Origin: Spirochaetales bacterium
Lineage (GTDB): Bacteria > Spirochaetota > Spirochaetia > JABEVK01
Direction: 5' to 3'
Assembly: GCA_037142615.1 (NCBI GenBank)
Contig: JBAXAI010000056.1
Coordinates: 1 to 18,664 of the forward strand
Length of the DNA: 18,664 nucleotides
Position numbers and translations under genes: made by a program. Below the pieces are notes generated by a model. It saw only the letters and a list, made by a program, of their open reading frames with translations, was not told where the DNA came from and made no database searches. This document shows positions 2,771 to 14,075 of the stretch, in pieces (position 1 is the first letter of the stretch; each line of letters starts with the position of its first letter).

Positions 2771-4824
2771 CGCTTGATGAGTTTGCCCTTGACCTGGTGA
2801 AGTCGGTCACTCCCGACGGGCATTTGTGGGTGGGCAGTGGCCGAACCACCGTGCAGCCGGTGGCCCGTACCGCCGCCGGGGTGGGGGCCTTCTATTCGCC
2901 GCCGGTGGCCGCCCACGGCGTGAGCCTGGCCGTCGTGTTCACCGTCGACGGCTTCACCGTGCCCGACACCGGCAACACCGGCAAGGGCGACATCGGCCTG
3001 CTCTACCAGGGCGGCACGTGGTACCCCGACAAGTTGGTGCGTCACGGCAGCTACCACCACCGTAAAAACGGCGTTTTGCGCTCTTTCGCGGTCGAATCGA
3101 CCCTGGTGCCTTTGGCCGACGCGGCGGGGTACGTGCTCCGGCTGAAGTTGACCAACCGTAGCCCTCAGCCCCTTTCGCTTTCGGCCCATCCGAGGTTGGA
3201 GCCCGGCAAGGTGGAGCTGCGCCCGCTTTCCGACTGGGTGTTCGGCCTGCCCCGGGGCGGTGACCCCCTGGTCGAAACGGCCCCTGGCGCGTGGCAGACG
3301 GCCGGCTACGGACCTCAAACCGAGCTTCGGGTTCAAAGCGAGACCCGCACGGTCGTGGTCTTCCCCGGCGAGTCTCACCTTTCCGAAGTGGTCGTTCTGG
3401 CGGGCCCGCGGACTGCCTCCCGCCTCCCTTTGGTCGACGCCACCATTGCGGCCCGGCGTACCTCCCAGGTCTGGAAGGCCCGGGTGGAACGCTTCACCGC
3501 ACGCCTGCCCGACGTGACCAGCACGGTTCCCGGCCTGGCCGACTACTACCGCCGGTCGGTGGCCAGCGGACTGGTGTGCCTTTGGGAAGATCCTGCCTTT
3601 GTGACCAACCCGTTTTTGGCGACCTGCGGCCTCGACGGAGGCGGCGTCAACACTTACTTGTGGGACCTCGGCGGTTACGTGCCGCAAGCCGCGACCCTGC
3701 TGTTGGGGTCAGACCTCGTGCCCATCGCTCAGGCCTTAGCCCGGGTACCGCTCGAAACCTACTTTTCGATCGCGCCCGATGGCACTCCTTCCGGGACTCC
3801 CTACTCGTACAGCGCCTTCTCGTTCCTGTCGCTCGTGTGGTCCATCAGCTGCCTGGTGGGCCCCGACGAGGCGCTTTACCGCGAGGCCCGGCGGCTGTTT
3901 GAGCTCGCTGAGACCCAGTTTCCCCGGCATCCGGACCCGAAGTTCGCCGACCTGCTCGACTACGGTGAACAACGCAACATGCTCGAAATGCGAGGTGCCG
4001 GGTGGGAGCACCTGGTAGCCAGCCCCAACGCCGAGCGCGCGTGGTGCCTCGACCGCTTGGCCGATCTCGGCTTGCACTTCGGCGCGGTCACCTTGGGCGA
4101 GGCTGCCGGGCTTCGTACCCGCGCCGAGCGCATCCGCCTCGCCATCCGCGAGCACCTTTGGGACCGCGAGCGCGGGGAGTTCAAAAGCGTGTTTCCCGAC
4201 GGTCATGTCGAGTACGCCCGCTCCATCCAGGCGTTCGACGCGCTGCGGGCCGGCGCCTGCGACCCCGAAATGGAGGCGGCGCTGCTGGCGCAAGTCGTCG
4301 ACGGGCAGTACCTCGGCGACTACGGGGCCACCAGCGTGTCGCGTGCCGACACCACGCACTACGAGACCAACGACCCCGACTGGTCGGGGGCGGGCGCCTA
4401 CACCGGCGATCCTCCCGCGCTGGCGCTGACGTTGTACGAGCGCGGGCACGCCGCGCTGGGCTGGGACGTGTTGCGACGGCTCTTCTGGATGGGCCAGCAC
4501 CTGCCGTACTTTCCGCAGGAACACCGCTGCGACACGCCGACCACCGTGGCCCACAAGCGCGCCAACGTCATTTCGGGGCTGGGCGGCGCCGAGGCGCTGA
4601 TCTTCGGCCTCACGGGGCTCCAGGTGGATCTGGGCGGTTCGCTGTCGCTGTTCCCCAACCCGCCTCCGGGTGGCGAAGTGAGCTTTCGCGGGCTGCAGGT
4701 GCGCGGCGCCACGCTCGACGTGGTTCTGCGTCCCGGCCACGCGACCATCACGGTGAACGGCACGGTGGTGCTCGACGGACCTCCGGCGCTTGTGACCTGG
4801 CCGACAGGGAGAGCCCATGGGTAA
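2767..4824 (+). CDS. Putative (alpha/alpha)6-barrel glycoside hydrolase (MGH1/GH63-like or amylo-alpha-1,6-glucosidase-like), 685 aa
   Basis: The likely start is GTG 2767, overlapping the dehydrogenase stop (GTGA); the upstream 347 codons of the tracked ORF look like a shadow frame. Six-hairpin-glycosidase-like motifs YLWD, HLWDRERGEF, YLGDYGATSVS, DPDWSGAGAY and LPYFPQE, with beta-rich N- and C-terminal domains. Exact family and substrate are uncertain. Confidence 0.7.
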   Translation: MTLDEFALDLVKSVTPDGHLWVGSGRTTVQPVARTAAGVGAFYSPPVAAHGVSLAVVFTVDGFTVPDTGNTGKGDIGLLYQGGTWYPDKLVRHGSYHHRKNGVLRSFAVESTLVPLADAAGYVLRLKLTNRSPQPLSLSAHPRLEPGKVELRPLSDWVFGLPRGGDPLVETAPGAWQTAGYGPQTELRVQSETRTVVVFPGESHLSEVVVLAGPRTASRLPLVDATIAARRTSQVWKARVERFTARLPDVTSTVPGLADYYRRSVASGLVCLWEDPAFVTNPFLATCGLDGGGVNTYLWDLGGYVPQAATLLLGSDLVPIAQALARVPLETYFSIAPDGTPSGTPYSYSAFSFLSLVWSISCLVGPDEALYREARRLFELAETQFPRHPDPKFADLLDYGEQRNMLEMRGAGWEHLVASPNAERAWCLDRLADLGLHFGAVTLGEAAGLRTRAERIRLAIREHLWDRERGEFKSVFPDGHVEYARSIQAFDALRAGACDPEMEAALLAQVVDGQYLGDYGATSVSRADTTHYETNDPDWSGAGAYTGDPPALALTLYERGHAALGWDVLRRLFWMGQHLPYFPQEHRCDTPTTVAHKRANVISGLGGAEALIFGLTGLQVDLGGSLSLFPNPPPGGEVSFRGLQVRGATLDVVLRPGHATITVNGTVVLDGPPALVTWPTGRAHG

Positions 4825-6583
4825 CTACGACAAGTTTCCTCGCGTCGAGCTGCCCGATCTGGCCGACCAGGCCTGGGCGGGTTGGCCAGCCGTGGGCTCC
4901 GAAATCGCCCGCCGCGCCCAGAAGCTGCTGGTCGGGGGTCAGACCTCGGCAGCGGGACGGGTTGTGGTTTGCGTCGACACCTACCCCGGCGTGCGCGACG
5001 CCGAATTGCTGGTGGCGCTGGCGCAGGCCTTGCAACCCAGGCTGCTGATCGACGCGGCCCGCGCCAGCAAAAGCCCGGCCGAGGTTTCGGCGATGGTCGA
5101 CCGCGAACTGACCACCGACCGCGTGTTCGGCCTGCTCAGCCGCCGCACCGTGGGCGAGTTCCTCGACCCGGAGGCCTCGGCGGCCGCCAGCCACCGGCTC
5201 GCGACAGCCCAAGGGGTGGTGCTGGTCTACGGCACCGGTGCCAGCCTGCTGTGTACCCCCGACGTGCTCGTGCTGGCCGACCTGGCCCGCTGGGAAATCC
5301 AGCAGCGCTACCGCCGCAAGGAGACCCCCAACTGGCTGGCCGCCAACACCGGCGAAGACGTGCTGCGGATGTACAAACGCGGTTTCTACCTCGACTGGCG
5401 GGTGTACGACCGGCACAAGAAGTCGCTGTTCCCCCGGCTCGACTACGTGCTCGACACCAACCGACCCGGCGACCCGGCACTACTGACCGGTTCGGCCTTC
5501 CGCGAGGCACTGGCGCGCACGGCGCAGCGGCCCTTCCGTGTGGTGCCGTTCTTCGACCCCGGGGTGTGGGGTGGCCAGTGGATGAAGTCGGTGTGCGGCC
5601 TCGACCCGTCGCTGCCCAACTACGCGTGGTGCTTCGACTGCGTGCCCGAAGAAAACAGCCTGGTGTTGGGTCTGGGCCCGGTGACCGTGGAACTGCCCTC
5701 GATTGACCTGGTGTTTGCCCGCCCCGAAGACCTGCTCGGCCCCCGCGTGCACGCCCGCTTCGGCACCGAGTTCCCCATCCGCTTCGACCTGCTCGACACC
5801 ATGGGCGGGGGCAACCTCAGCCTGCAAGTGCATCCGCTGACAGAATATATCCAAGACCACTTCAACATGCCCTACACCGAGGACGAGAGCTACTACCTGC
5901 TCGACGCCGGCGACGACGGCTCGGTGTTCCTGGGGCTCAAGGAGGGCGTGAACCCTGCAGCGATGATGGCCGATCTTCGCGCCGCGCAGGCCGGCGGGGC
6001 GCCGTTCCCCGACGAAGAGCACGTCAACCGCTTCCCGGCCCGCAAGCACGACCACTTTCTGATTCCCGCTGGCACCGTGCACTGCAGTGGACAGGGCAGC
6101 CTGGTGCTCGAGATCAGCTCGACGCCGTTCATGTTCACCTTCAAGATGTGGGACTGGGGCCGTTTGGGAATGGACGGCAAGCCGCGGCCTGTGCACCTGG
6201 ACCACGCCGAGGCCAACATCCAGTGGGACCGCACCACCGACTGGGTGAAGCGCGAGCTGGTGAACCGCATCGAGGTGGTGGCGCAAGGTGATGGCTGGAC
6301 CGAGGAGCGCACCGGCCTGCACGAGCGCCAGTTCCTCGAAACCCGCCGCCACTGGTTCACCGCTCCCGTCGACCACCACACCGGCGGGGGCGTGAACGTG
6401 CTCAATCTGGTCGAGGGCGAGGCCGCCGTGGTCGAAAGTCCCACAGGAGCCTTCGCCCCCTTCGAGGTGCACTACGCCGAGACGTTCCTTGTTCCGGCCG
6501 CCGTCGGGGCCTACCGCATCCGTCCGCTGGGCGAGGCCAAGAACGGCCGTTGGGGCACCGTGAAGGCCTTCGTCCGCGCCTGA
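4817..6583 (+). CDS. Long-form class I mannose-6-phosphate isomerase-like cupin protein (588 aa)
   Basis: C-terminal PMI type I motifs PFFDPGVWGGQW, FPIRFDLLDT..GGNLSLQVHP, DESYY, HFLIPAGTVH, VLEIS and TFKMWDWGR. It carries an extra ~235-aa N-terminal domain and overlaps the upstream gene by 8 nt. Confidence 0.8.
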   Translation: MGNYDKFPRVELPDLADQAWAGWPAVGSEIARRAQKLLVGGQTSAAGRVVVCVDTYPGVRDAELLVALAQALQPRLLIDAARASKSPAEVSAMVDRELTTDRVFGLLSRRTVGEFLDPEASAAASHRLATAQGVVLVYGTGASLLCTPDVLVLADLARWEIQQRYRRKETPNWLAANTGEDVLRMYKRGFYLDWRVYDRHKKSLFPRLDYVLDTNRPGDPALLTGSAFREALARTAQRPFRVVPFFDPGVWGGQWMKSVCGLDPSLPNYAWCFDCVPEENSLVLGLGPVTVELPSIDLVFARPEDLLGPRVHARFGTEFPIRFDLLDTMGGGNLSLQVHPLTEYIQDHFNMPYTEDESYYLLDAGDDGSVFLGLKEGVNPAAMMADLRAAQAGGAPFPDEEHVNRFPARKHDHFLIPAGTVHCSGQGSLVLEISSTPFMFTFKMWDWGRLGMDGKPRPVHLDHAEANIQWDRTTDWVKRELVNRIEVVAQGDGWTEERTGLHERQFLETRRHWFTAPVDHHTGGGVNVLNLVEGEAAVVESPTGAFAPFEVHYAETFLVPAAVGAYRIRPLGEAKNGRWGTVKAFVRA

Positions 6584-6619
6584 GGCACCAACGAGTTTGC
6601 GAAAAAGGCTCAACCCGGG

Positions 6620-6647
6620 GGACACATTTCCGGTCGGCGCGTGTTAC
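6620..6647 (+). promoter_or_regulatory. Candidate ECF-sigma-type promoter of the ECF/caspase operon
   Basis: GGACAC-N16-TGTTAC in the 100-nt intergenic region upstream of the RBS GGAGG (6673-6677). Spacing is ECF-like, but the assignment is inference only. Confidence 0.3.
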
Positions 6648-6683
6648 ATAGAACGAACCGATCGAAAGTTCCGGAGGAAAGTC

Positions 6684-7262
6684 GTGAAAAAGTCCCTGCT
6701 GACCGTCTTCTTTGTTGCCGCCACCCTGATTCCTGGCCTGGCCGCCCAAGAGCTCGTGCAATTGCGCCTGCCAGTGGTGGTATCAACACCGTGGACCGGA
6801 GCTGACTGGTCCCAAAACGCCACCCTCGGCCTGGCCCCCGAGCTGATCTTTGACCAGATCGGTTTTGGTGTCGACGGTGGGGTTCGCTTTACCCGCGACC
6901 TGAGCAAGGCCTGGAGCCTGGACTTCCGCGGGCAGCTGTTCACCAGCTTCCACTTCTTGGGCGTGCAGTCCAACCTCGACCCGTTCGTGCTCGCTGGGCT
7001 CGGGTCCGCAGGCTGGGTCGACCTTACGCACGGGGTTGCCCCCCGGCCTGGCGACAACCTGACCGGTATCGCCCTCGCGCTGGTGCCCTCGCTGGGGGCA
7101 GGTCTGGCCCTCGACCTTGGTGGTCTGGTTGTGGGACTCCGGGCCTTGTGGTTCCCCACCGTGTGGGATATTCCCGCCGCGCCTATCGACAGGTATCTTC
7201 TTGTGCCGGCTGAACTCAGCGTGTTCGTCGCCTGGGCGCTGGCCGACCACGCGAAGTGGTAG
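6684..7262 (+). CDS. Exported hypothetical protein, probable small outer-membrane beta-barrel (192 aa)
   Basis: GTG start after RBS GGAGG. Signal peptide MKKSLLTVFFVAATLIPGLAA. Alternating amphipathic strands GFGVDGGVRF, SLDFRGQLFTSFHF, LDPFVLAGLG, SLGAGLALDL and VVGLRALW. Confidence 0.65.
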   Translation: MKKSLLTVFFVAATLIPGLAAQELVQLRLPVVVSTPWTGADWSQNATLGLAPELIFDQIGFGVDGGVRFTRDLSKAWSLDFRGQLFTSFHFLGVQSNLDPFVLAGLGSAGWVDLTHGVAPRPGDNLTGIALALVPSLGAGLALDLGGLVVGLRALWFPTVWDIPAAPIDRYLLVPAELSVFVAWALADHAKW

Positions 7263-7269
7263 CCGGGCG

Positions 7270-7749
7270 ATGACCGACGTCGAGGCCCTGTACCGGCGCT
7301 ACGGACCCATGGTCCATCGTCGCTGCCGGGCGCTGTTGGGCGAGGAAGGTGCGGCCGACGCTTCGCAAGAGGTGTTTGTGCGGCTGTTGCGCACCGGGAG
7401 TCGGCTCGAAGACCGGGGCCTGTGCAGCCTGCTCTACACCCTGGCGACCCACCAGAGCCTGAACGTGCTGAGGGCCGAAAAGTCGCGCCCGGGCTTTGCG
7501 GCCAGCGATCTGCTCGAAGAAATCGCCTGCCTGGACGAGGGTGAGGACCGCACCCTGGCCACTGACCTGCTCGAACGGGTGTTTCACCAGCATCCAGCCT
7601 CGAGCCGCATGCTCGCCACGTTGCACTGGGTCGATGGCCTGACCCTGGAGGAAACGGCGCAGGCCGTCGGTTTGTCGGTGTCGGGAGTGCGTAAACGACT
7701 GGCCAAACTGAAAGAATCGGGACGACTGCTCAAGGAGGCTCCCCTGTGA
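7270..7749 (+). CDS. ECF-type RNA polymerase sigma-70 factor (159 aa)
   Basis: Region 2: VEALYRRYGPMVHRRCRALLG..AADASQEVFVRL..LYTLATHQSLNVLR. Region 4: LHWVDGLTLEETAQAVGLSVSGVRKRL. ATG 7270 lies just after the upstream stop. Confidence 0.92.
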   Translation: MTDVEALYRRYGPMVHRRCRALLGEEGAADASQEVFVRLLRTGSRLEDRGLCSLLYTLATHQSLNVLRAEKSRPGFAASDLLEEIACLDEGEDRTLATDLLERVFHQHPASSRMLATLHWVDGLTLEETAQAVGLSVSGVRKRLAKLKESGRLLKEAPL

Positions 7750-8501
7750 AAATCAACACCTTGCACGCCGAACAACACCACCTGGGCGAACTTCCCGCAG
7801 GGCTGCAACCCGACTGGACCGAAGCTGAGGCCCAGGCCTCCCACACTGAGCTCGCGGCGGCCGATGAGGCCTACTTGGCGCGATACCCTGCGGACAAGGC
7901 GGCCGCTGCGATCCAGGCTGCACTCGCGGCACCGTCCCCGCAGGCCCGCAGCCAGAGACCTTCGCGGCTGACCCGCCTGACGCTGCGGTTTGCTCCCCTT
8001 CTGGCGGCGGCCGCGCTCATCGTCGGCATCGGCACCGGTCCGCTGCTGGACAGCCTGAACACCGAGCGGACCAAGGGTAGCGCCGCCAATGGTGGCGCCA
8101 AGCTCGCGGTGTACCGGCAAAGCGCCGACGGCGTCACGCTGTTGGCCGAAGGGGCCAAGGCCCGGGCCGGTGACCGGCTCCAGGTGGAGTTTGTCGCGCC
8201 ACTCCGCAGTTGGGTTCTGGTGTTTTCGGTCGACGGAGCAGGGGTTTTGACCACCCACTACCCAGCCGACTCGGCGGCCAGCAAGGCCACGCGGGCCGTT
8301 CAGGTTGCCACTGCCGACACGCTGGTGAATCAGGCCTACGTGCTCGACAACGCGCCGAACTTCGAGCGGTTCTACCTCGTGGTGGCCGCCCACGGGTTCG
8401 ACCTCGCCACGGTTTGGAGCTCCCTGCGGGCGCACCCGCTCGACACCCGTCTTCCCGACGGCCTCATTGCGTATCCTCTGACCCTGACCAAGGAGCCCTG
8501 A
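7746..8501 (+). CDS. Putative single-pass membrane anti-sigma factor with extracytoplasmic (DUF4384-like) domain, 251 aa
   Basis: Coupled to the sigma gene (GTGA). N-terminal helical domain LHAEQHHLGELP without a ZAS HxxxCxxC motif, a basic stretch, then a TM helix FAPLLAAAALIVGIGTG and RTKG. The beta-rich C-domain (RAGDRLQVEF..WVLVFSVDGAGVLTTHYP..AYVLDNAPNFERFYLV) resembles DUF4384. Confidence 0.7.
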   Translation: MKINTLHAEQHHLGELPAGLQPDWTEAEAQASHTELAAADEAYLARYPADKAAAAIQAALAAPSPQARSQRPSRLTRLTLRFAPLLAAAALIVGIGTGPLLDSLNTERTKGSAANGGAKLAVYRQSADGVTLLAEGAKARAGDRLQVEFVAPLRSWVLVFSVDGAGVLTTHYPADSAASKATRAVQVATADTLVNQAYVLDNAPNFERFYLVVAAHGFDLATVWSSLRAHPLDTRLPDGLIAYPLTLTKEP

Positions 8502-8502
8502 C

Positions 8503-10506
8503 ATGAAACGACTGGTTTTGCTCACCCTGGCGGTGGGCCTGATGACCACCCTTACCGCGGCCGATCTGCGCCGGTTTGCCCTTTTTGTGGGTGCCGACAA
8601 CGGCGGATCCGGGCGCGTGGCGCTTCGTTATGCTGTCAGCGACGCCAAGGCCCTGCAGGGTGTTCTCACCGAACTTGGGGGCCTGGCCAGCTCAGATTCC
8701 TCGGTGCTCGGCAACCCCGACCGCAATGCGGTGCTGAAGTCGCTGGCTTCCTTCGGGCCGCGTGTCGCCCAGGGCAAGCTGGCCGGTTCCCGGGCCGAGT
8801 TCCTGTTTTATTACTCGGGCCACTCCGACGAAAACGGGCTTCTGCTGGGAAACACCCGCATCGGCTACGGCGAACTTCGCGACGCTCTGGCGGGGGTCGG
8901 GGCCGACGTGCGTTTGGCGGTGCTCGACTCGTGCGCGTCGGGGGCGTTCACCCGGCTCAAGGGCGGCACCAAGACCGCGCCGTTTTTGCAGGACGAGTCG
9001 TCGGTGCTCGAAGGCCACGCCTACCTCACCTCGTCGTCCGAAGACGAAGCGAGCCAGGAATCCGACAAGATCGGGGGCTCGTTTTTTACCCACTACCTCA
9101 TTTCGGGTCTGCGCGGTGCCGCCGACACGACAGGCGACGGCCGGGTGAGCCTCAACGAAGCCTACCGGCACGCCTTCGACGAAACCCTGGCGCGCACCGA
9201 AGACACCCAGGCGGGGCCCCAGCACCCTTCGTACGACATTCAGCTTTCGGGTACCGGCGACCTGGTTCTCACCGACCTGACGCAGAAGACCAGCCGCCTG
9301 GTGCTCGGCCCCGACGTCGCGGGCCAGGTGTTTGTGCGCACGCAGTCGGGCTCGCTCGTGGTCGAGGTCCGTAAGTCTGCCGGCGAGGCGTTGAGCCTCG
9401 CGGTTCCCGCTGGTGTTTACGAAGTCGCCTTGCAGGCTCCCGAAGGGTTTTCCCAGACCCGACGCGGCGTCGTCGCTGGTGAGGCGGCCAACGTGTCAGC
9501 GGCTGACTTCACTCTGGGCACCAAGCAGGCTACCCGTGTGCGGGGCTCCGCGTCGGGGGGGGCTGCGCCAACCGTGGTCGGGCAGGACTATCTGCGCCTC
9601 AACTTCGGCCTCACGCCAGGCCTCGAACTGTTCGACGCCAGCGACAAAACCACCGCCCTCAGTCTGCACGGCATCCTTTCTGTCACGGGCTATTCCCGCG
9701 TGTTGCAACTGGCGGGCGTCGGCAACCTTTCGCAGGGAAACGAAGGCCTGCAGGGTGCCGGGGTGTTCAACATCGTCAGCGGCGAGGTGCTCGGCGCGCA
9801 GTCCGCAGGGGTTTTCAACCTGAGCGGGCCCTTGCGCGGCGCTCAGTTGGGTGGGGTGTTCAACCAGGCCGAGTCGGTGTGGGGGTTGCAAGCGGCCGGG
9901 GTGCTCAACATCGCCGGCGACGTTTCGGGGCTCCAGACCGCCGGGGTCGTCAACATCGCCCGCAACGTGAAGGGCTTTCAGCTCGGGCTGGTCAACATCG
10001 CCAACCACGTCGACGGCATGGCTCTCGGCCTGGTCAACATCGCCGACAACAGCTACGGCAGCTTGGGCTTTGACTACGACGTGCGCGGCCAGCAGTGGAC
10101 AACCCTCGAATGGGGCGCAGGCACGCTGCACAACATTCTCATTGCCGCGCCGGGCACACAACTGGCCCTCGACGGACTCAAGGGCATCGGACTCGGGCTA
10201 GGCTGGGGCAAGGAAGTCCGCCTGGAAACCCAGGCCGTGGCGTTTTACACCTCGTCGGGCTGGAACTTCGAGTCAACCGCGGGCGCCCCGGTCGCCGTGA
10301 CCCCTGCCTTCCGCGCCGTGCTGAACGCCAAACTCGGCTTTCTGGGCGTACACGTCGGCTGGCTGGGCACGGCTGGCTTCCCGGGCTACACCGCCGACAC
10401 CACTCTTGTCGGCGGGCCCGATACCCTCGAAACCCAGGCCTTTACCCCCGGCTACACCTGGCTCATCACCGGCCGACCGTTCTTGGGGGCCTCGATCGGC
10501 TTTTGA
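8503..10506 (+). CDS. Exported caspase-family (peptidase C14, ortho/metacaspase) protein with repeat region and beta-rich C-terminus, 667 aa
   Basis: Signal peptide, RRFALFVGADNG, LRYAVSDA, catalytic His in YYSGHS (H107) and Cys in VLDSCASG (C144), then SQESDKIGGSFFTHYLISGLRGAAD..GDGRVSLNEAY..QHP. About eight G-x-Q-x-x-G-V-x-N repeats follow and the protein ends FLGASIGF. RBS AAGGAG. Confidence 0.88.
   Translation: MKRLVLLTLAVGLMTTLTAADLRRFALFVGADNGGSGRVALRYAVSDAKALQGVLTELGGLASSDSSVLGNPDRNAVLKSLASFGPRVAQGKLAGSRAEFLFYYSGHSDENGLLLGNTRIGYGELRDALAGVGADVRLAVLDSCASGAFTRLKGGTKTAPFLQDESSVLEGHAYLTSSSEDEASQESDKIGGSFFTHYLISGLRGAADTTGDGRVSLNEAYRHAFDETLARTEDTQAGPQHPSYDIQLSGTGDLVLTDLTQKTSRLVLGPDVAGQVFVRTQSGSLVVEVRKSAGEALSLAVPAGVYEVALQAPEGFSQTRRGVVAGEAANVSAADFTLGTKQATRVRGSASGGAAPTVVGQDYLRLNFGLTPGLELFDASDKTTALSLHGILSVTGYSRVLQLAGVGNLSQGNEGLQGAGVFNIVSGEVLGAQSAGVFNLSGPLRGAQLGGVFNQAESVWGLQAAGVLNIAGDVSGLQTAGVVNIARNVKGFQLGLVNIANHVDGMALGLVNIADNSYGSLGFDYDVRGQQWTTLEWGAGTLHNILIAAPGTQLALDGLKGIGLGLGWGKEVRLETQAVAFYTSSGWNFESTAGAPVAVTPAFRAVLNAKLGFLGVHVGWLGTAGFPGYTADTTLVGGPDTLETQAFTPGYTWLITGRPFLGASIGF
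9703..10047 (+). repeat. Intragenic ~14-16-aa tandem repeats (beta-solenoid-like; LA_2272-type surface repeat)
   Basis: LQLAGVGN, GLQGAGVFN, GAQSAGVFN, GAQLGGVFN, GLQAAGVLN, GLQTAGVVN, GFQLGLVN and GMALGLVN; recurring GTCAACATCGCC at DNA level. Confidence 0.85.
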
Positions 10507-10521: not shown

Positions 10522-11943
10522 CTACTCGAGCCCCGGCAGGCGGAAGAACTCCTTGGCGTTGCTGTAGCAGATGCTCTTCACCAGGCCTCCGACCAGTTTT
10601 TCGTCGCCGGGCACGAGGCCCTCTTCCATCCAGCCGCCGACCAACCGGCACAGCACGCGGCGGAAGTACTCGTGGCGCGGAAAGCTCAAAAAACTGCGGC
10701 TGTCGGTGAGCATGCCCACGAACCGGCTCAAGAGGCCCTGGTTGGCTAGCGCCCGCAGTTGCAGGTCCATGCCATCGATGTGGTCGTTGAACCACCACGC
10801 CGACCCGAGCTGCACCTTGCCCGCGACCGAACCGTCCTGGAAGCACCCGATTACAGAGCCCAGCAGATCGTTTGCGGTCGGGTTGAGCGAATACAGAATG
10901 ACGCGGGGCAGGGCGCCCTCGCGGTCGAGGATTCCCAAAAAGGCCCCGAGGGCGAGGCCGACGGGAGCGTCGCTGATGGCGTCGTAGCCGGTGTCGGGCC
11001 CGAGTTTGGCAAACTGACCGGGGCTCAGGTTGCGCTGCGCCCCGATGTGCAGCTGCATGGTCCAGCCCTTGGCTGTGTTCAGGCGGCCCACCTCGAGCAG
11101 AAGGTCGGTTTGCAGGGCTTCGGCTTCGGCCGCCGTCACCGGAACACCCTTCAGGCACCGGTCAAAGGTAGTGTCGAGCTCGGCAGCGGTGGCAGACCTT
11201 GCGGGAGGGACCACCAGCGCGTGGTCAGTCAGGCGGCAACCCGCCTGGTGAAACGCCTCATGCCGGTGCCCCAGCGCAGCCTTGAGATGGGCACGCGTCG
11301 CAATGGTTATTCCCGCCGCCGCGCCCAATTTCTTCAGGTAGTCGGGCCACGTGGTCAATTGCACAGCCACCGCCTTGTCGGGCCGGAAGGTCGGCGCCAT
11401 GACTACCAGGTCCGTTGCTGCCGACTTGGACCCCTTGTGCCGCAAGTGATGCGCCAGGTCGTCGGCCGGGTCGTCGGTGGTGCACAGGGCCCTCACCTTC
11501 ATCTTGGCCAGCAGTTCCTGCGTCGAAAACCCGCCGCCGCGCAGTTGTTCGTTGGCGGCGTCGTAGATGCGGTCGGCGCTCGCCGGGTTCAGGGGCTCGG
11601 TGATGCCGAAGTACCGCTGCAGCTCCAGGTGCGTCCAGTGGTAGAGCGGGTTGCCCAGCAGGTGGGGCACGGTGGCGGCCCAGGCGCGGAAGCTCTCGCG
11701 GTCGGGCTTGCGCCCGGTGATCAGCGCCTCGGGAAGGCCGTTGGCCCGCATTTGCCGCCACTTGTAGTGGTCGCCGCCCAGCCACAGCTGCGCCAGGTCG
11801 GTGAACCTGGTGTTGTCGGCCACCTCGTTCGGCGGCAGGTGGTTGTGGTAGTCAAGGATGGGCTCGTTCTTGGCCCAAGCGTGAAACAGGCGCCGGGCCG
11901 GCTCGGTGGTCAGCAGAAAGTCTTCGTGCAGGAAAGGTTTCAT
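10522..11943 (-). CDS. uxaC: Glucuronate (uronate) isomerase, 473 aa
   Basis: Start ATG 11943 (MKPFLHEDFLL) overlaps the uxaE stop. Motifs PILDYHNHL, WLGGDHYKWRQMR, GNPLYHWTHLEL, CTTDDP, QLHIGA, GSAWWFND and GMLTDSRSFLSFPRHEYFRR. Confidence 0.96.
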   Translation of the reverse strand: MKPFLHEDFLLTTEPARRLFHAWAKNEPILDYHNHLPPNEVADNTRFTDLAQLWLGGDHYKWRQMRANGLPEALITGRKPDRESFRAWAATVPHLLGNPLYHWTHLELQRYFGITEPLNPASADRIYDAANEQLRGGGFSTQELLAKMKVRALCTTDDPADDLAHHLRHKGSKSAATDLVVMAPTFRPDKAVAVQLTTWPDYLKKLGAAAGITIATRAHLKAALGHRHEAFHQAGCRLTDHALVVPPARSATAAELDTTFDRCLKGVPVTAAEAEALQTDLLLEVGRLNTAKGWTMQLHIGAQRNLSPGQFAKLGPDTGYDAISDAPVGLALGAFLGILDREGALPRVILYSLNPTANDLLGSVIGCFQDGSVAGKVQLGSAWWFNDHIDGMDLQLRALANQGLLSRFVGMLTDSRSFLSFPRHEYFRRVLCRLVGGWMEEGLVPGDEKLVGGLVKSICYSNAKEFFRLPGLE

Positions 11944-13196
11944 CGCAGGTTCTCCAGAAACAACGGACGCATGTGCTTGTCGAAAAGATTGTCGGTGACG
12001 CGTTTGCCCACCACCGCCGCGTGTTTTTCGAGCGCGCCCAGGTAGCGAGGCCCCAGTTCGGCGGCCACCTTGTAGCCCACGTGGATCAGTTGGCGGAAGC
12101 TCGGGTTGAACGCCGGGTTCTTTTGGTCGTGGGCCAGCGCGGCCACGAACTGAGCCGCGTTCCATTTCCCTATCGTGTCGGGCGAGGGGAGCTTCTTGGG
12201 GTCGATGTCGATCACCGACGCGTACGGTGCGGCCAGCTCGTCGTAGCGGCCCAGCGCCCCCAGATAGATTTCCTTGGCGAGGGCCAAACCGTCGGCGCCG
12301 GCTTCGGCCAAACCGGTCACTTCCTCGAGCCAGGTCGTCCCCGCCGTCTTGATGTGCAAGCCCGCGTTGTGCTTCTTGACCGCGCGGCCGATGGGGCCGT
12401 ACAGGCTGAACTTGTCGCTGCCCGAGTGCACGCTGAGCTTCAGGTTGGCCGGCAGTCCGTGGGTCGCCACCGCGTGGGCAATCACCAGCAGGTCGTCGCC
12501 AAACTCCTTTTCGAACACCGCCAGGTTGCCCACAAAGTCGACGCCCTTGTTGAACCGGCCCGAGAACTTGGGCGCGATGGTCTGGATGGGAATGCCTTCA
12601 TCGGCGATGGCCGACAGGATGAACCACAACTCGAGAGGGGTTTGCGGCAGGTCGGTCTCGTCCATCGAGATTTCGGTGACAAAGTGGCCTTTGCCCTTGG
12701 CGGCCTCGATGCGCCGGTAGATTCGCCCGGCTTCCTGCACCGCGAACAGGTACTTGCCGGCGATGCGCTCGACGTCCGAACTCCCTAGCGAAAACGGTCG
12801 GTCGATGCCCGGCAGCTCGAGTTTGCCGGCCTTGAGGGCGTGGCGGGCCGCAAACGCGCCCAGCGAGGCCGGCTCGGCCGCTTTGCCGATAAAGTCGGCC
12901 ACATCGAGGGTGTAAAAGTCGCAGGCCGCCAAAAAACCATCCACGGTCTTCTGCCCGATGTGGTCGGCATCGCAATAATAGGGGTCACTCCAGCCGAGGG
13001 CCTTCACGGCGGCGTCGGCCTCGGCCCGGGTGGCGGCAGGCTCGCTGTGGATGATGCTGTGCTCGCGGAACGATTTGTTCCACACCGGGGCGATGGTCAC
13101 GCCCGCGGCTTTGGCGGCGACAAAGGCCTGCAACTGAGCGACGCCCTGGTGCGCGAACCGGTCGCCGATGCCCATCGAAAAACGGGGTAGGGTCAT
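11940..13196 (-). CDS. uxaE: Tagaturonate/fructuronate epimerase, 418 aa
   Basis: FSMGIGDRF, DADHI, EISMDET, IAPKFSGRFNKGVD, KLSVHSGSDKFS and HIKTAGTTWLE are UxaE family motifs. RBS AAGGAG; adjacent to uxaC. Confidence 0.9.
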   Translation of the reverse strand: MTLPRFSMGIGDRFAHQGVAQLQAFVAAKAAGVTIAPVWNKSFREHSIIHSEPAATRAEADAAVKALGWSDPYYCDADHIGQKTVDGFLAACDFYTLDVADFIGKAAEPASLGAFAARHALKAGKLELPGIDRPFSLGSSDVERIAGKYLFAVQEAGRIYRRIEAAKGKGHFVTEISMDETDLPQTPLELWFILSAIADEGIPIQTIAPKFSGRFNKGVDFVGNLAVFEKEFGDDLLVIAHAVATHGLPANLKLSVHSGSDKFSLYGPIGRAVKKHNAGLHIKTAGTTWLEEVTGLAEAGADGLALAKEIYLGALGRYDELAAPYASVIDIDPKKLPSPDTIGKWNAAQFVAALAHDQKNPAFNPSFRQLIHVGYKVAAELGPRYLGALEKHAAVVGKRVTDNLFDKHMRPLFLENLR

Positions 13197-13217
13197 AGTG
13201 AACTCCTTGAAACCAGA

Positions 13218-14075
13218 CTAGACGCCGCTAGAGGCGCTGAAGCCGCCGTCGACCGGCAGCACGATGCCCGTCACAAACCGCGACAGGTTCGAAAGCAAGA
13301 ACAACACCGCGCCTTGCAGCTCCTCCACCTCGCCGAAGCGGGCCATGGGAGTCCCCGCGACGATCTTGCGGGCCCGGGGCGACTTCTCGCCGGTTTTTTC
13401 ATCGAACATCAAAAAACGGTTCTGCTCGGTGAGAAAAAAGCCCGGTGCCAGCGCGTTGACGCGGATGCCCTGCGGCGCCAGGTGCACGGCCAGCCACAGC
13501 GTCAGGTTGTTTACCGCCGCCTTGGCCGCCGCGTAGCCTGCCACCTTGGTCAGCGGGCGAATCGAGGCCATCGACGACAGGTTGAGGATGACTCCGCCGC
13601 GCCCCACCATGTCTTGGCCAAACACCTGGGTGGGCAGCAGCGTGCCGGTGAAATTCAGCCGCATCACGTCGTCAAAGGCGTTCGGGTCCATGGCAAAAAA
13701 GCTGGACGCGAGGTCGCCGCCGGGCTGAAGCGTTTCGGCTGGAGCCGTGGCCGTTGGTTTGTTGCCCCCGGCACCGTTGATCAGCAGGTCGATGCGCCCC
13801 AGGCGCTCGTGGATCTCTGATCGAGCCGCCTCAAGGGCGGCTCGATCGAGCACATCGAAGCCCAGCCCGACGATGGTGCCCGCTCCCGGCACCCCTTTGA
13901 GTTCGGCGTTCAGCTTGTCGGCCAGCGCCTCGGCCTTCGCCCGGTCGCGCCCCGCGATGGCCAGCTTGACCCCGGCAGCGCCCAGCGCCCGGGCCAGCGC
14001 CACACCGATCACGCCGGTTCCCCCGGTCATCACGGCCACCTTGCCGCGCAAATCTGCAAAATCCAATGGGTTCAT
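13218..14075 (-). CDS. uxuB: SDR oxidoreductase, D-mannonate oxidoreductase/fructuronate reductase (UxuB-type), 285 aa
   Basis: Start ATG 14075 overlaps the LacI stop (ATGA). Motifs TGGTGVIG, LINGAGGN, LNFTGTLLPTQVF, SSMASIRPLTKVAGYAAAK (YxxxK), RVNALAPGFFLTEQNR and PVDGGFSA. Context is uxaE/uxaC. Confidence 0.82.
   Translation of the reverse strand: MNPLDFADLRGKVAVMTGGTGVIGVALARALGAAGVKLAIAGRDRAKAEALADKLNAELKGVPGAGTIVGLGFDVLDRAALEAARSEIHERLGRIDLLINGAGGNKPTATAPAETLQPGGDLASSFFAMDPNAFDDVMRLNFTGTLLPTQVFGQDMVGRGGVILNLSSMASIRPLTKVAGYAAAKAAVNNLTLWLAVHLAPQGIRVNALAPGFFLTEQNRFLMFDEKTGEKSPRARKIVAGTPMARFGEVEELQGAVLFLLSNLSRFVTGIVLPVDGGFSASSGV

Follow-up and report, generated by a model that had tools for sequence, protein, structure and literature searches.

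Organisation of the locus

The window, by which we mean the whole stretch of DNA analysed here (18,664 nucleotides, nt), is an entire 18.7-kb contig, JBAXAI010000056.1, from a Spirochaetales bacterium whose 4.27-Mb genome is assembled in 76 contigs. Its forward strand carries, at positions 6684-10506, four genes oriented in one direction, here named g1 to g4, with a 7-nt gap between the first two, a GTGA overlap between g2 and g3, and a 1-nt gap between g3 and g4. Gene calls and junctions match the preliminary description of this locus, which saw in these four tightly coupled genes a candidate system for signalling across the envelope with a caspase as its trigger. The analysis presented here identifies g2, g3 and g4, encoding respectively a sigma factor of the extracytoplasmic function (ECF) type, a candidate membrane anti-sigma protein and a caspase homologue with its own predicted outer-membrane (OM) barrel, as a cassette conserved across phyla and furnished with an ECF-type promoter. 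We propose that g4 may free the sigma factor by cutting g3, a reading weighed below against its alternatives. The four genes are as follows.

6684-7262, + strand: g1, 192 amino acids (aa), GTG start, GGAGGA at 6673-6678; small exported protein and first gene of the operon here
7270-7749, + strand: g2, 159 aa, ECF sigma factor composed of sigma2 and sigma4 only
7746-8501, + strand: g3, 251 aa, single-pass candidate anti-sigma protein
8503-10506, + strand: g4, 667 aa, exported C14 protease

Conservation of the cassette

One genome per species was scanned with g4 as seed. The 67 resulting loci belong to Spirochaetota, Myxococcota, Aminicenantes/Acidobacteria and a small number of other groups, and their open reading frames (ORFs) were searched with the four proteins of the window. 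The g4 protein was found at 67/67 of these loci, g3 at 65/67, always directly upstream and on the same strand, and the sigma factor at 58/67, always directly 5' of g3. The nine loci without a sigma gene comprise six of Archangium type (L018-L023), L061, and two that are cut by a contig end (L053 and L056). All-against-all clustering of the ORFs of these loci revealed no further conserved family, the other large clusters being shadow ORFs on the opposite strand. Of the four-part system originally envisaged, which included an OM protein, the g2-g3-g4 core is therefore conserved; g1, present at only 9/67 loci, is not a core member.

The co-occurrence of the three core genes, for which a neighbourhood survey had been suggested, is conserved in the g4-, g3- and sigma-seeded sets alike. 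Among 301 genomes sampled from the same phylum, a g3 profile had matches in 40 (30 of 126 genera), and at the g3-seeded loci a caspase gene lies directly downstream in 30/30 and a sigma gene directly upstream in 29/30, the exception starting 82 bases from a contig end. When the sigma factor was used as seed in four myxobacterial genomes, g3 and/or the caspase adjoined the sigma homologue at 12/12 loci. There are therefore several paralogous cassettes per genome, and the trio occurs in myxobacteria too, as the preliminary description had said of ECF/DUF4384/C14 neighbourhoods.

Sigma-g3 pairs lacking g4 are absent from the 30 g3-seeded loci; sigma-less g3-g4 pairs do exist, at seven loci (L018-L023 and L061), and these retain the promoter motif described below directly 5' of g3. 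In the three such genomes that were searched, a complete cassette elsewhere supplies the sigma gene. It may therefore be that one sigma factor is fed by, or drives, several anti-sigma/protease pairs. The g2-g3-g4 linkage is close to obligate and the conservation counts place the arrangement far beyond chance. The cassette is almost certainly a functional unit.

The sigma factor and the candidate anti-sigma protein

The g2 protein scores 55.3 bits against TIGR02937 (cut-off 42.9) and 34.8 bits against Sigma70_r2 (cut-off 24, E-value 1.5e-8); models of sigma region 4 give matches below their cut-offs. The TIGR02937 match, the small size and the two sigma domains uphold its initial identification as an ECF sigma factor. 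The protein encoded immediately downstream, g3, has the following parts.

g3 residues 1-74, + strand: N-domain, cytoplasmic, helical in the AlphaFold2 model
g3 residues ~78-100 (7977-8045), + strand: transmembrane helix, the only hydrophobic span
g3 residues 119-249 (8100-8492), + strand: periplasmic, DUF4384-like beta-sandwich in the AlphaFold2 model

Five Arg residues within the 15 residues preceding the span place the N-terminus inside, according to the positive-inside rule. Hydropathy and model thus agree with the topology already proposed for g3, namely a cytoplasmic N-domain, one span and an outside domain, and with its gene directly after that of an ECF sigma factor, its single pass and its N-in orientation the protein shows the general layout of a membrane anti-sigma factor. 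The model, for which 142 relatives were aligned, has a predicted local distance difference test (pLDDT) score of 85.8, the N-domain helices occupying residues 5-12, 26-46 and 49-61. The lowest-confidence stretch, with pLDDT below 50, is the linker at residues 101-109.

The g3 family is large, with 2525 cluster representatives (50% identity) at E-values up to 0.001, nearly all of 220-300 aa, and relatives in Spirochaetota, Myxococcota, Acidobacteriota and other phyla. DUF4384 (PF14326), named in the preliminary description as part of similar neighbourhoods, was indeed detected in 46 of the 142 relatives (best E-value 5.4e-7), the g3 of the window itself giving no match at E-values up to 0.1. 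Structurally, the sandwich resembles macroglobulin and Ig-like domains (Z-score 8.4, root mean square deviation (RMSD) 2.2, 88 residues aligned), a similarity at the level of a common fold only, and the g3 profile, when run against solved structures, found a designed coiled coil alone, at an E-value of 0.34.

The N-domain (residues 1-74) contains no Cys and g3 is therefore not a zinc anti-sigma (ZAS) protein; a zf-HC2 scan of the organism's own genome found none. This domain does contain a conserved LLERYxLGELP stretch, and E9 and E15 are nearly invariant among the 142 relatives. The stretch may be like the YxDGEL helix of anti-sigma domains. Further along, between residues 161 and 209 (window 8226-8372), S161, D163, H171, D201, E207 and F209 are invariant in the 142 sequences; the polar set has the look of a site for a ligand or a metal, and might be the sensory input. 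We consider it likely that g3 is the anti-sigma factor of the cassette, in which role it would bind g2.

The caspase homologue

The g4 protein has a modular construction, extending from a protease at the N-terminus to a barrel at the C-terminus.

g4 residues 1-20, + strand: signal peptide; hydrophobic residues 4-22, no lipobox Cys (hydropathy)
g4 residues 22-258 (8566-9276), + strand: caspase domain (Pfam and model)
8821-8934, + strand: catalytic dyad H107 (8821-8823) and C144 (8932-8934), with S105 and D142 respectively two residues before each (alignment)
g4 residues 265-331, + strand: beta-sandwich between caspase domain and beta-helix
g4 residues 347-361, + strand: disordered linker between caspase domain and beta-helix
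g4 residues ~360-516 (9580-10050), + strand: beta-helix of LA_2272-type repeats, GxQxAGVxN (model)
g4 residues 517-667 (10051-10503), + strand: 8-stranded barrel (model), C-terminus ...ASIGF

Residues 23-224 match Peptidase_C14 (PF00656) at 39.1 bits (cut-off 21.4), and the His107/Cys144 dyad, described from the outset as intact, lies at exactly those positions. Neither residue of the dyad varies in an alignment of 71 sequences, nor do D47, S105 and D142, and 67/67 loci have the dyad motifs. Profile searches against solved structures gave no match at E-values up to 1 for the caspase domain alone; the profile of g4 found plant metacaspases only (E-values 0.0064-0.21, including metacaspase 9 at 0.0064 and metacaspase 4 at 0.063).

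The AlphaFold2 model of g4, for which 71 relatives were used, has a pLDDT of 88.2, most of the barrel region exceeding 90, and was compared using VIA-align with 48,161 chains. The caspase region, residues 19-261, superimposes on a pro-caspase with a Z-score of 19.6 (over 19-256; RMSD 2.8, 208 residues aligned), followed by the plant metacaspase 4 at 18.7 and MALT1 at 18.4. Residues 360-542 resemble beta-helices, among them the antifreeze protein 3p4g (13.7) and the two-partner-secretion domains of HxuA (12.2), EtpA (11.7) and HMW1 (11.5). For the barrel, the corresponding values are 13.9 for OprF (RMSD 3.0, 113 residues aligned), 12.9 for OmpA and OmpW, and 11.9 for PagL; matches to the NCBIfam models LA_2272 repeat and VC2662 fall below their cut-offs. 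In the predicted model the barrel has the eight strands and the terminal aromatic residue of small OM barrels of the OmpA/OprF/OmpW kind.

The Sec-like hydrophobic stretch at residues 4-22 supports the signal peptide that had been read at the start of the protease. This call, and that for g1 below, are hydropathy calculations and not the output of a dedicated predictor. The location in the envelope claimed for an exported caspase thus stands, although not as a free periplasmic enzyme, since g4 has its own C-terminal barrel, preceded by a beta-helix stalk, and would therefore be anchored in the outer membrane. Eight-stranded OM barrels, in known examples, have both their ends in the periplasm and offer no pore for a passenger domain. 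The protease domain of g4 most likely faces the periplasm, to judge by this general barrel topology, and, with the barrel ends periplasmic, would therefore share a compartment with the linker of g3.

Relatives of g4 of equal length number at least 3849 at E-values up to 0.001 among the 8000 candidates scored; where a source gives a name, it is 'caspase family protein' or 'LA_2272 family surface repeat-containing protein'. The organism's own genome holds 22 Peptidase_C14 matches, most of them outside this kind of context. Among these, g4 is the most divergent full-length member: it scores 42 bits, the 18 strongest 95-149 and the shorter or partial ones 32-88. By tblastn, only g4 itself is related to g4 over its full length.

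Promoter and regulon

The intergenic region before g1 contains the following element, located by means of a weight matrix.

6617-6649, + strand: ECF-type promoter; -35 element GGGACA (6619-6624), 16-nt spacer, -10 element GTGTTA (6641-6646)

Of 57 other loci, 35 have the motif G[TG][AG][AG]C[AGT]-N16-[GT]TGTT, typically GTAACA-N16-GTGTTA, no more than 150 nt 5' of the sigma gene, compared with a mean of 0.06 and a maximum of 1 in 200 shuffles. A spacing of AAC-N16-(C)GT is the geometry of ECF promoters. The matrix was built from these 35 sites, the window being excluded and no g1 sites being used. When it was scanned over both strands of the 4.27-Mb genome, the best match of all, with a score of 24.4, was that at 6617-6649, 34 nt before the start of g1, which is therefore the first gene of the operon in this genome. 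The earlier suggestion that the system might induce its own operon is borne out to the extent that a conserved ECF-type promoter falls within the stretch 6584-6683 then put forward for a reporter. Between 6400 and 10800, a scan for sigma-70 promoters found 0 and one for terminators found five terminator-like sites versus 4.0 expected, which is no excess. Four further genome matches (C10:119384, C3:49920, C3:160313 and C59:6108) each fall within one or more open frames longer than 100 codons and were set aside as probable chance occurrences.

Sites that score at least 17 number 69 in the 67 loci. Of these, 36 precede sigma genes, nine g1 homologues, seven the sigma-less g3-g4 pairs and one the lone g4 of L056; one lies at a second g3-like ORF in L041, three are identical copies in L062, and the remaining 12 precede other adjacent ORFs. 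The homologues of g1 have a high-scoring site directly 5' at 9/9 loci, in seven as a separate, second site beside that of the sigma gene, and for this reason g1 looks like an output of the regulon. The 12 other ORFs (at L015, L024, L028, L029, L032, L036, L049, L051, L066, L067, L069 and L070) are co-directional or divergent; most are small and have, by eye, a start like that of a signal peptide, some being Gly-rich and barrel-like. Of the ten scanned with Pfam, five had no match; the others were two glycine-zipper proteins, a bacterial TSP3-repeat lipoprotein, a pectinacetylesterase and a weak match to DUF7107. From the placement of sites across the 67 loci it is thus well supported that the system induces both itself and small envelope proteins that vary by lineage, g1 being the version of this genome.

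The three sites in L062 (2242-2274, 2565-2597 and 12476-12508) are near-identical 33-mers scoring 20.1, two of them differing by one base from the third, and lie away from the cassette; they probably belong to a repeated element rather than to promoters.

The g1 protein itself has hydrophobic residues 3-25, resembling a Sec signal peptide, with no lipobox Cys, and ends in an aromatic residue, W here and F in most homologues. It has no Pfam match, and its homologues gave nothing significant in Pfam, OMP_b-brl appearing in 2/10 at an E-value of 0.09; the same family is attached to one Atlas neighbour cluster of g1 with a score of 0.96. The protein is probably a small outer-membrane beta-barrel. 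A possible kinship of g1 with the barrel of g4 was considered and dropped, BLASTP giving an E-value of 2.1 and showing no relation.

The front part of the cassette recurs, in truncated form, on another contig of the same genome (C39, around 12722-13638). This second copy has the third-best promoter match in the genome (20.2), at the same 34-nt spacing before an intact g1 paralogue (202 aa, 74% identical), and a sigma paralogue (67% identical) that stops after 75-78 codons and gives way to unrelated DNA, with no g3 or g4 behind it. The intact g1 paralogue would still be controlled by the sigma factor of the window.

A candidate enzyme-substrate relation

D47 of g4 lies where helix alpha1 begins, and profile alignment with solved structures pairs it with the Asp in the 'ND' motif of metacaspases. 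The S1 pocket residues of TbMCA2 and MALT1 presumably stand at the same offsets from the catalytic residues as do S105 and D142 in g4. Those reported are Cys92, Asp95, Ser156 and Asp211 in TbMCA2 and Asp365, Asp462 and Glu500 in MALT1 (PMC4357240). At the level of sequence, then, g4 shows the acidic S1 signature of C14 enzymes of metacaspase and paracaspase type, an Asp on alpha1 and another two residues before the Cys. Orthocaspases are described as cleaving after basic residues (PMC6426788). Since D47, S105 and D142 are invariant, the g4 family should therefore have the acidic pocket of Arg/Lys-cutting enzymes, and this predicted specificity would match a candidate site in g3. A related motif is present in g4 itself.

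8067-8078, + strand: g3 R108-T-K110-G111, in the juxtamembrane linker; candidate cleavage site (conservation)
8953-8967, + strand: g4 R151-L-K153-G154-G155, in the loop after the Cys; candidate autoprocessing site (conservation)

In the 142 relatives of g3, K110 is present in 142/142, G111 in 141/142 and R108 in 130/142, and the motif adjoins the low-confidence stretch of the model at residues 101-109. The loci yield 64 full-length g3 proteins, of which 63 have a K-G no more than 35 residues after the transmembrane helix (in L037 it lies further out) and 56 have RxKG. On the g4 side, K153, G154 and G155 are invariant in the 71 sequences and R151 is present in at least 90%, RxKGG following CxSG by 2-8 residues at 67/67 loci; residues 147-155 are flexible, with pLDDT below 50. 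Caspases and metacaspases process themselves roughly at the loop after the catalytic Cys. The K-G motifs of both g3 and g4 are kept in distant paralogous cassettes, whose sigma factors are 32-42% identical. Prediction of a complex between g4 (21-345) and g3 (98-251) from aligned inputs gave scores of 0.30 and 0.27, where the mark is 0.32, and, having no controls, speaks neither for nor against binding.

Proposed mechanism and alternatives

Together these observations suggest the following scheme. In the resting state g2 would be held at the inner membrane by g3, with the cytoplasmic N-domain as the anti-sigma domain and the DUF4384-like domain in the periplasm. The metacaspase-type, presumably Lys/Arg-specific g4 would sit in the outer membrane, fixed there by the barrel that it carries, and its beta-helix stalk would extend it into the periplasm. 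A signal in the envelope would activate g4, perhaps through self-cutting at the RxK|GG loop, and the active enzyme would then cleave g3 at K110|G111, a few residues outside the membrane. Removal of the remaining stub by an RseP-type site-2 protease might release g2, and free g2 would transcribe from GTAACA-N16-GTGTTA promoters, driving its own operon in a positive feedback and, in addition, small envelope proteins such as g1. The genome encodes a single M50 (Peptidase_M50) site-2 protease, which is weak evidence since all 14 control genomes have one too.

That H107 and C144 are invariant in the 71 sequences, and that the dyad motifs are found at every locus, indicates that g4 is under selection as an enzyme. 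Cleavage is favoured because the g3-g4 linkage is tight even without an adjacent sigma gene and because the K-G of g3 is invariant and exposed. For the whole chain, with g4 as the site-1 protease of g3, we judge the chances to be even; for the cutting of g3 by g4 taken by itself they are even or a shade lower.

A number of points weigh against the scheme. Both the binding of g2 by g3 and the cutting of g3 by g4 are steps that we infer. The N-domain of g3 matches no anti-sigma family and the g3 of the window has no Pfam hit; zf-HC2 appears in 1/142 relatives (E-value 0.0016) and is absent from the window's g3; and the hits listed for g3 by Foldseek and VIA-align fall nearly all on the C-terminal sandwich. 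The P3 Arg is absent from g3 in some lineages with no matching change in g4, and there is therefore no covariation beyond the K-G. The K-G motifs could be structural, or be sites of another protease. On the side of g4, the orientation in the outer membrane is deduced from general barrel topology, and stalk, sandwich and caspase domain might together be too short to reach a site some 10 residues off the inner membrane. Finally, in L056 the promoter lies right before g4, and no g3 is found in the 230 nt left to the contig end.

This last locus is among the evidence for a different reading, fairly unlikely in our estimation, in which g4 is the output and not the trigger. The g2/g3 pair would be an ordinary one, freed by a protease of DegS or Prc type or through direct sensing by the DUF4384 domain, and g4 would be co-expressed with g1-type proteins to act on other envelope proteins in quality control, remodelling or self-destruction. 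Such a role would suit the position of g4 downstream in an autoregulated operon, as a result of which it is certainly induced by g2, as well as the makeup of the rest of the regulon, small exported or outer-membrane proteins, and the existence of 22 C14 matches in the genome, most of them without cassette context. What it leaves unexplained is that g3 and g4 are more tightly linked to one another than either is to the sigma gene, and that g3 has an invariant, exposed K-G matching both a pocket for basic P1 residues and the loop motif of g4. The same invariant K-G is unaccounted for if g4 is instead a non-proteolytic partner or guard of g3, docking on the DUF4384 domain to shield it or relay a conformational signal, with proteolysis confined to self-maturation. 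The order sigma factor, anti-sigma protein, OM protein does mirror fecI-fecR-fecA, and the flexible RxKGG loop of g4 suits self-processing. There is also a precedent in TonB-dependent transducers, which bind the anti-sigma factor in the absence of signal and guard it from proteolysis (PMC11637429). However, an invariant dyad and invariant S1 residues exceed the needs of docking, g4 has neither a TonB-dependent receptor barrel nor a signalling domain, and g3 has no FecR match, all of which makes a guarding role unlikely to us.

That the genes adjoin by chance, or are a decaying cassette without joint function here, is suggested only by the truncated C39 copy with its promoter, g1 paralogue and 78 sigma codons. 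The four genes of the window are intact and their junctions translationally coupled, the linkage is conserved across phyla, and the DNA of the cassette is fully covered by contigs from an independent public run at no less than 99% identity and with zero indels. This explanation is already contradicted by the conservation data and is highly improbable. The cleavage scheme may also be taken further, to a trans-envelope sensor combined with an irreversible switch. The stalked caspase would reach the K-G of g3 only upon perturbation of the envelope, for instance through a change in OM integrity or intermembrane distance, and RxK|G self-cleavage together with sigma-driven resynthesis would make the response self-amplifying, in effect a bacterial 'caspase cascade' of minimal form with a transcription switch, in place of a death pathway, as its physiological substrate. 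We offer this extension as speculation, and think it quite improbable.

Genomic setting

The cassette is set among carbohydrate and other metabolic genes, in keeping with the unrelated sugar genes noted at first sight, and its G+C content of 0.65-0.67 is the same as that of its flanks.

Upstream flank: a glycoside hydrolase of family GH3, a glutamate dehydrogenase and a GH-like protein
Downstream flank: uxaC, uxaE, a short-chain dehydrogenase/reductase (SDR), LacI and a GFO oxidoreductase

PADLOC gave in the window only a weak caspase match, and no defence genes were found nearby. No RNA data set was listed as containing the cassette; one metatranscriptome contig overlaps it by 34 bases at 90-95% likeness, which has no bearing on expression. 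Immediately 5' of the cassette, at 4817-6583 on the + strand, is a 588-aa ORF with no Pfam match at an E-value of 1e-5 and no PADLOC match, which by eye has the look of a cupin or sugar isomerase. On the other side, the longest ORF of uxaC (10522-12165, - strand) overlaps uxaE, and 74 extra N-terminal residues precede the Pfam match; the true start is probably further in.

Comparison with known systems

The best-known relative in logic is the sigmaE/RseA/DegS/RseP system of Escherichia coli, with its single-pass anti-sigma factor, a periplasmic site-1 cut near the membrane, an M50 site-2 protease and an autoregulated operon. The cassette resembles it in the ECF sigma factor with a single-pass candidate anti-sigma protein, the proposed two-step release and the autoregulated operon. 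It differs in that its candidate site-1 protease is an operon-encoded, OM-anchored C14 enzyme, whereas DegS is an inner-membrane HtrA-type serine protease. A further difference is that the g3 N-domain has no match in the RseA and ZAS families. With FecI/FecR/FecA the cassette shares gene order and, in the proposed scheme, signalling from an OM protein to an inner-membrane anti-sigma factor. FecA, however, is a 22-stranded TonB-dependent transducer, g4 an 8-stranded barrel with a protease, and g3 is without a FecR domain according to Pfam.

Closer in the nature of the protease is DdvA of Myxococcus xanthus, which acts with DdvS and has a periplasmic caspase-like CHAT domain; a self-cut in its linker ahead of RseP is proposed, and dependence on RseP is shown for truncated DdvA (PMC11506125). 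Common to DdvS/DdvA and the cassette, as far as the account available goes, are the ECF sigma factor, the transmembrane anti-sigma protein, a periplasmic His-Cys module of the caspase clan and a membrane-proximal linker as proposed cut site. Peculiar to DdvA are the fusion of TPR-CHAT to the anti-sigma protein, a zinc anti-sigma N-domain and control of an island encoding CBASS (cyclic-oligonucleotide-based anti-phage signalling) and CRISPR (clustered regularly interspaced short palindromic repeats) systems (PMC11506125). In the cassette, unlike DdvA, the protease is a separate C14 enzyme with an OM anchor, and the 251-aa g3 has only a sandwich outside and an N-domain without Cys. In craspase, of type III-E CRISPR, Csx29 cleaves Csx30, which binds an ECF-type RpoE, and the C-terminal domains of Csx30 include a group that is DUF4384 (bioRxiv 10.1101/2022.08.17.504292). 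A caspase-like protease and, in the proposed scheme, a two-domain, sigma-binding target with a DUF4384-type C-domain, as in g3, are thus shared. Craspase is itself cytoplasmic, RNA-guided and of CHAT type; the cassette, in contrast, has no CRISPR system at hand, and g3 sits in a membrane, its DUF4384 domain lying outside the cytoplasm.

As regards gene order there is a direct antecedent. Four of the five metacaspases of M. xanthus were reported in operons with factors of the sigma-70 family, and the same operons in Anaeromyxobacter, Haliangium, Sorangium, Ralstonia and Fibrobacter (Asplund-Samuelsson et al. 2012, PMC3501461). These very probably represent the same neighbourhood as the cassette; in the portion of that paper available, the account is one of gene order, with no anti-sigma protein, OM anchor, promoter, motif or mechanism. 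The ECF classification offers a second point of contact, group ECF25, which has single-pass anti-sigma factors with DUF4384 (supplement of PMC7826278), includes Deltaproteobacteria, Spirochaetes, Fibrobacteres and Acidobacteria among its taxa and has SigG/SapG of Nostoc as its studied member (PMC7826278). The likeness, drawn from that description only, lies in the type of anti-sigma domain and in the overlapping taxa; the promoter of ECF25s1 and ECF25s2 is GGAAC / GTC, with a -10 element unlike the GTGTTA of the cassette, and the main text and a part of the supplement contain no mention of a caspase (PMC7826278). A literature search, thin on subscription journals, found no paper that mechanistically links anti-sigma factors with C14 proteins, orthocaspases or metacaspases. 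The gene order has thus been in print since 2012, while the mechanism, the OM anchor, the promoter and the shared K-G motif were not found in print.

In g4 and the K110-G111 linker of g3 the cassette provides a specific candidate pair of enzyme and substrate, the outcome of which could be read as transcription from a defined promoter. Bacterial homologues of C14 caspases are abundant, yet to our knowledge physiological substrates have been defined for hardly any of them, and cell death is the usual frame in which they are discussed. Were the proposal correct, g4 would stand for a new kind of site-1 protease, dedicated to ECF activation, borne by the operon it serves and anchored in the outer membrane, DUF4384 would acquire a function, and the logic by which a caspase-like protease frees a sigma factor in craspase and DdvA would be widespread beyond phage defence. 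Its likenesses to sigmaE/RseA, DdvA and craspase notwithstanding, the cassette stands outside all three families, because its protease is a separate C14 enzyme with an outer-membrane anchor of its own.

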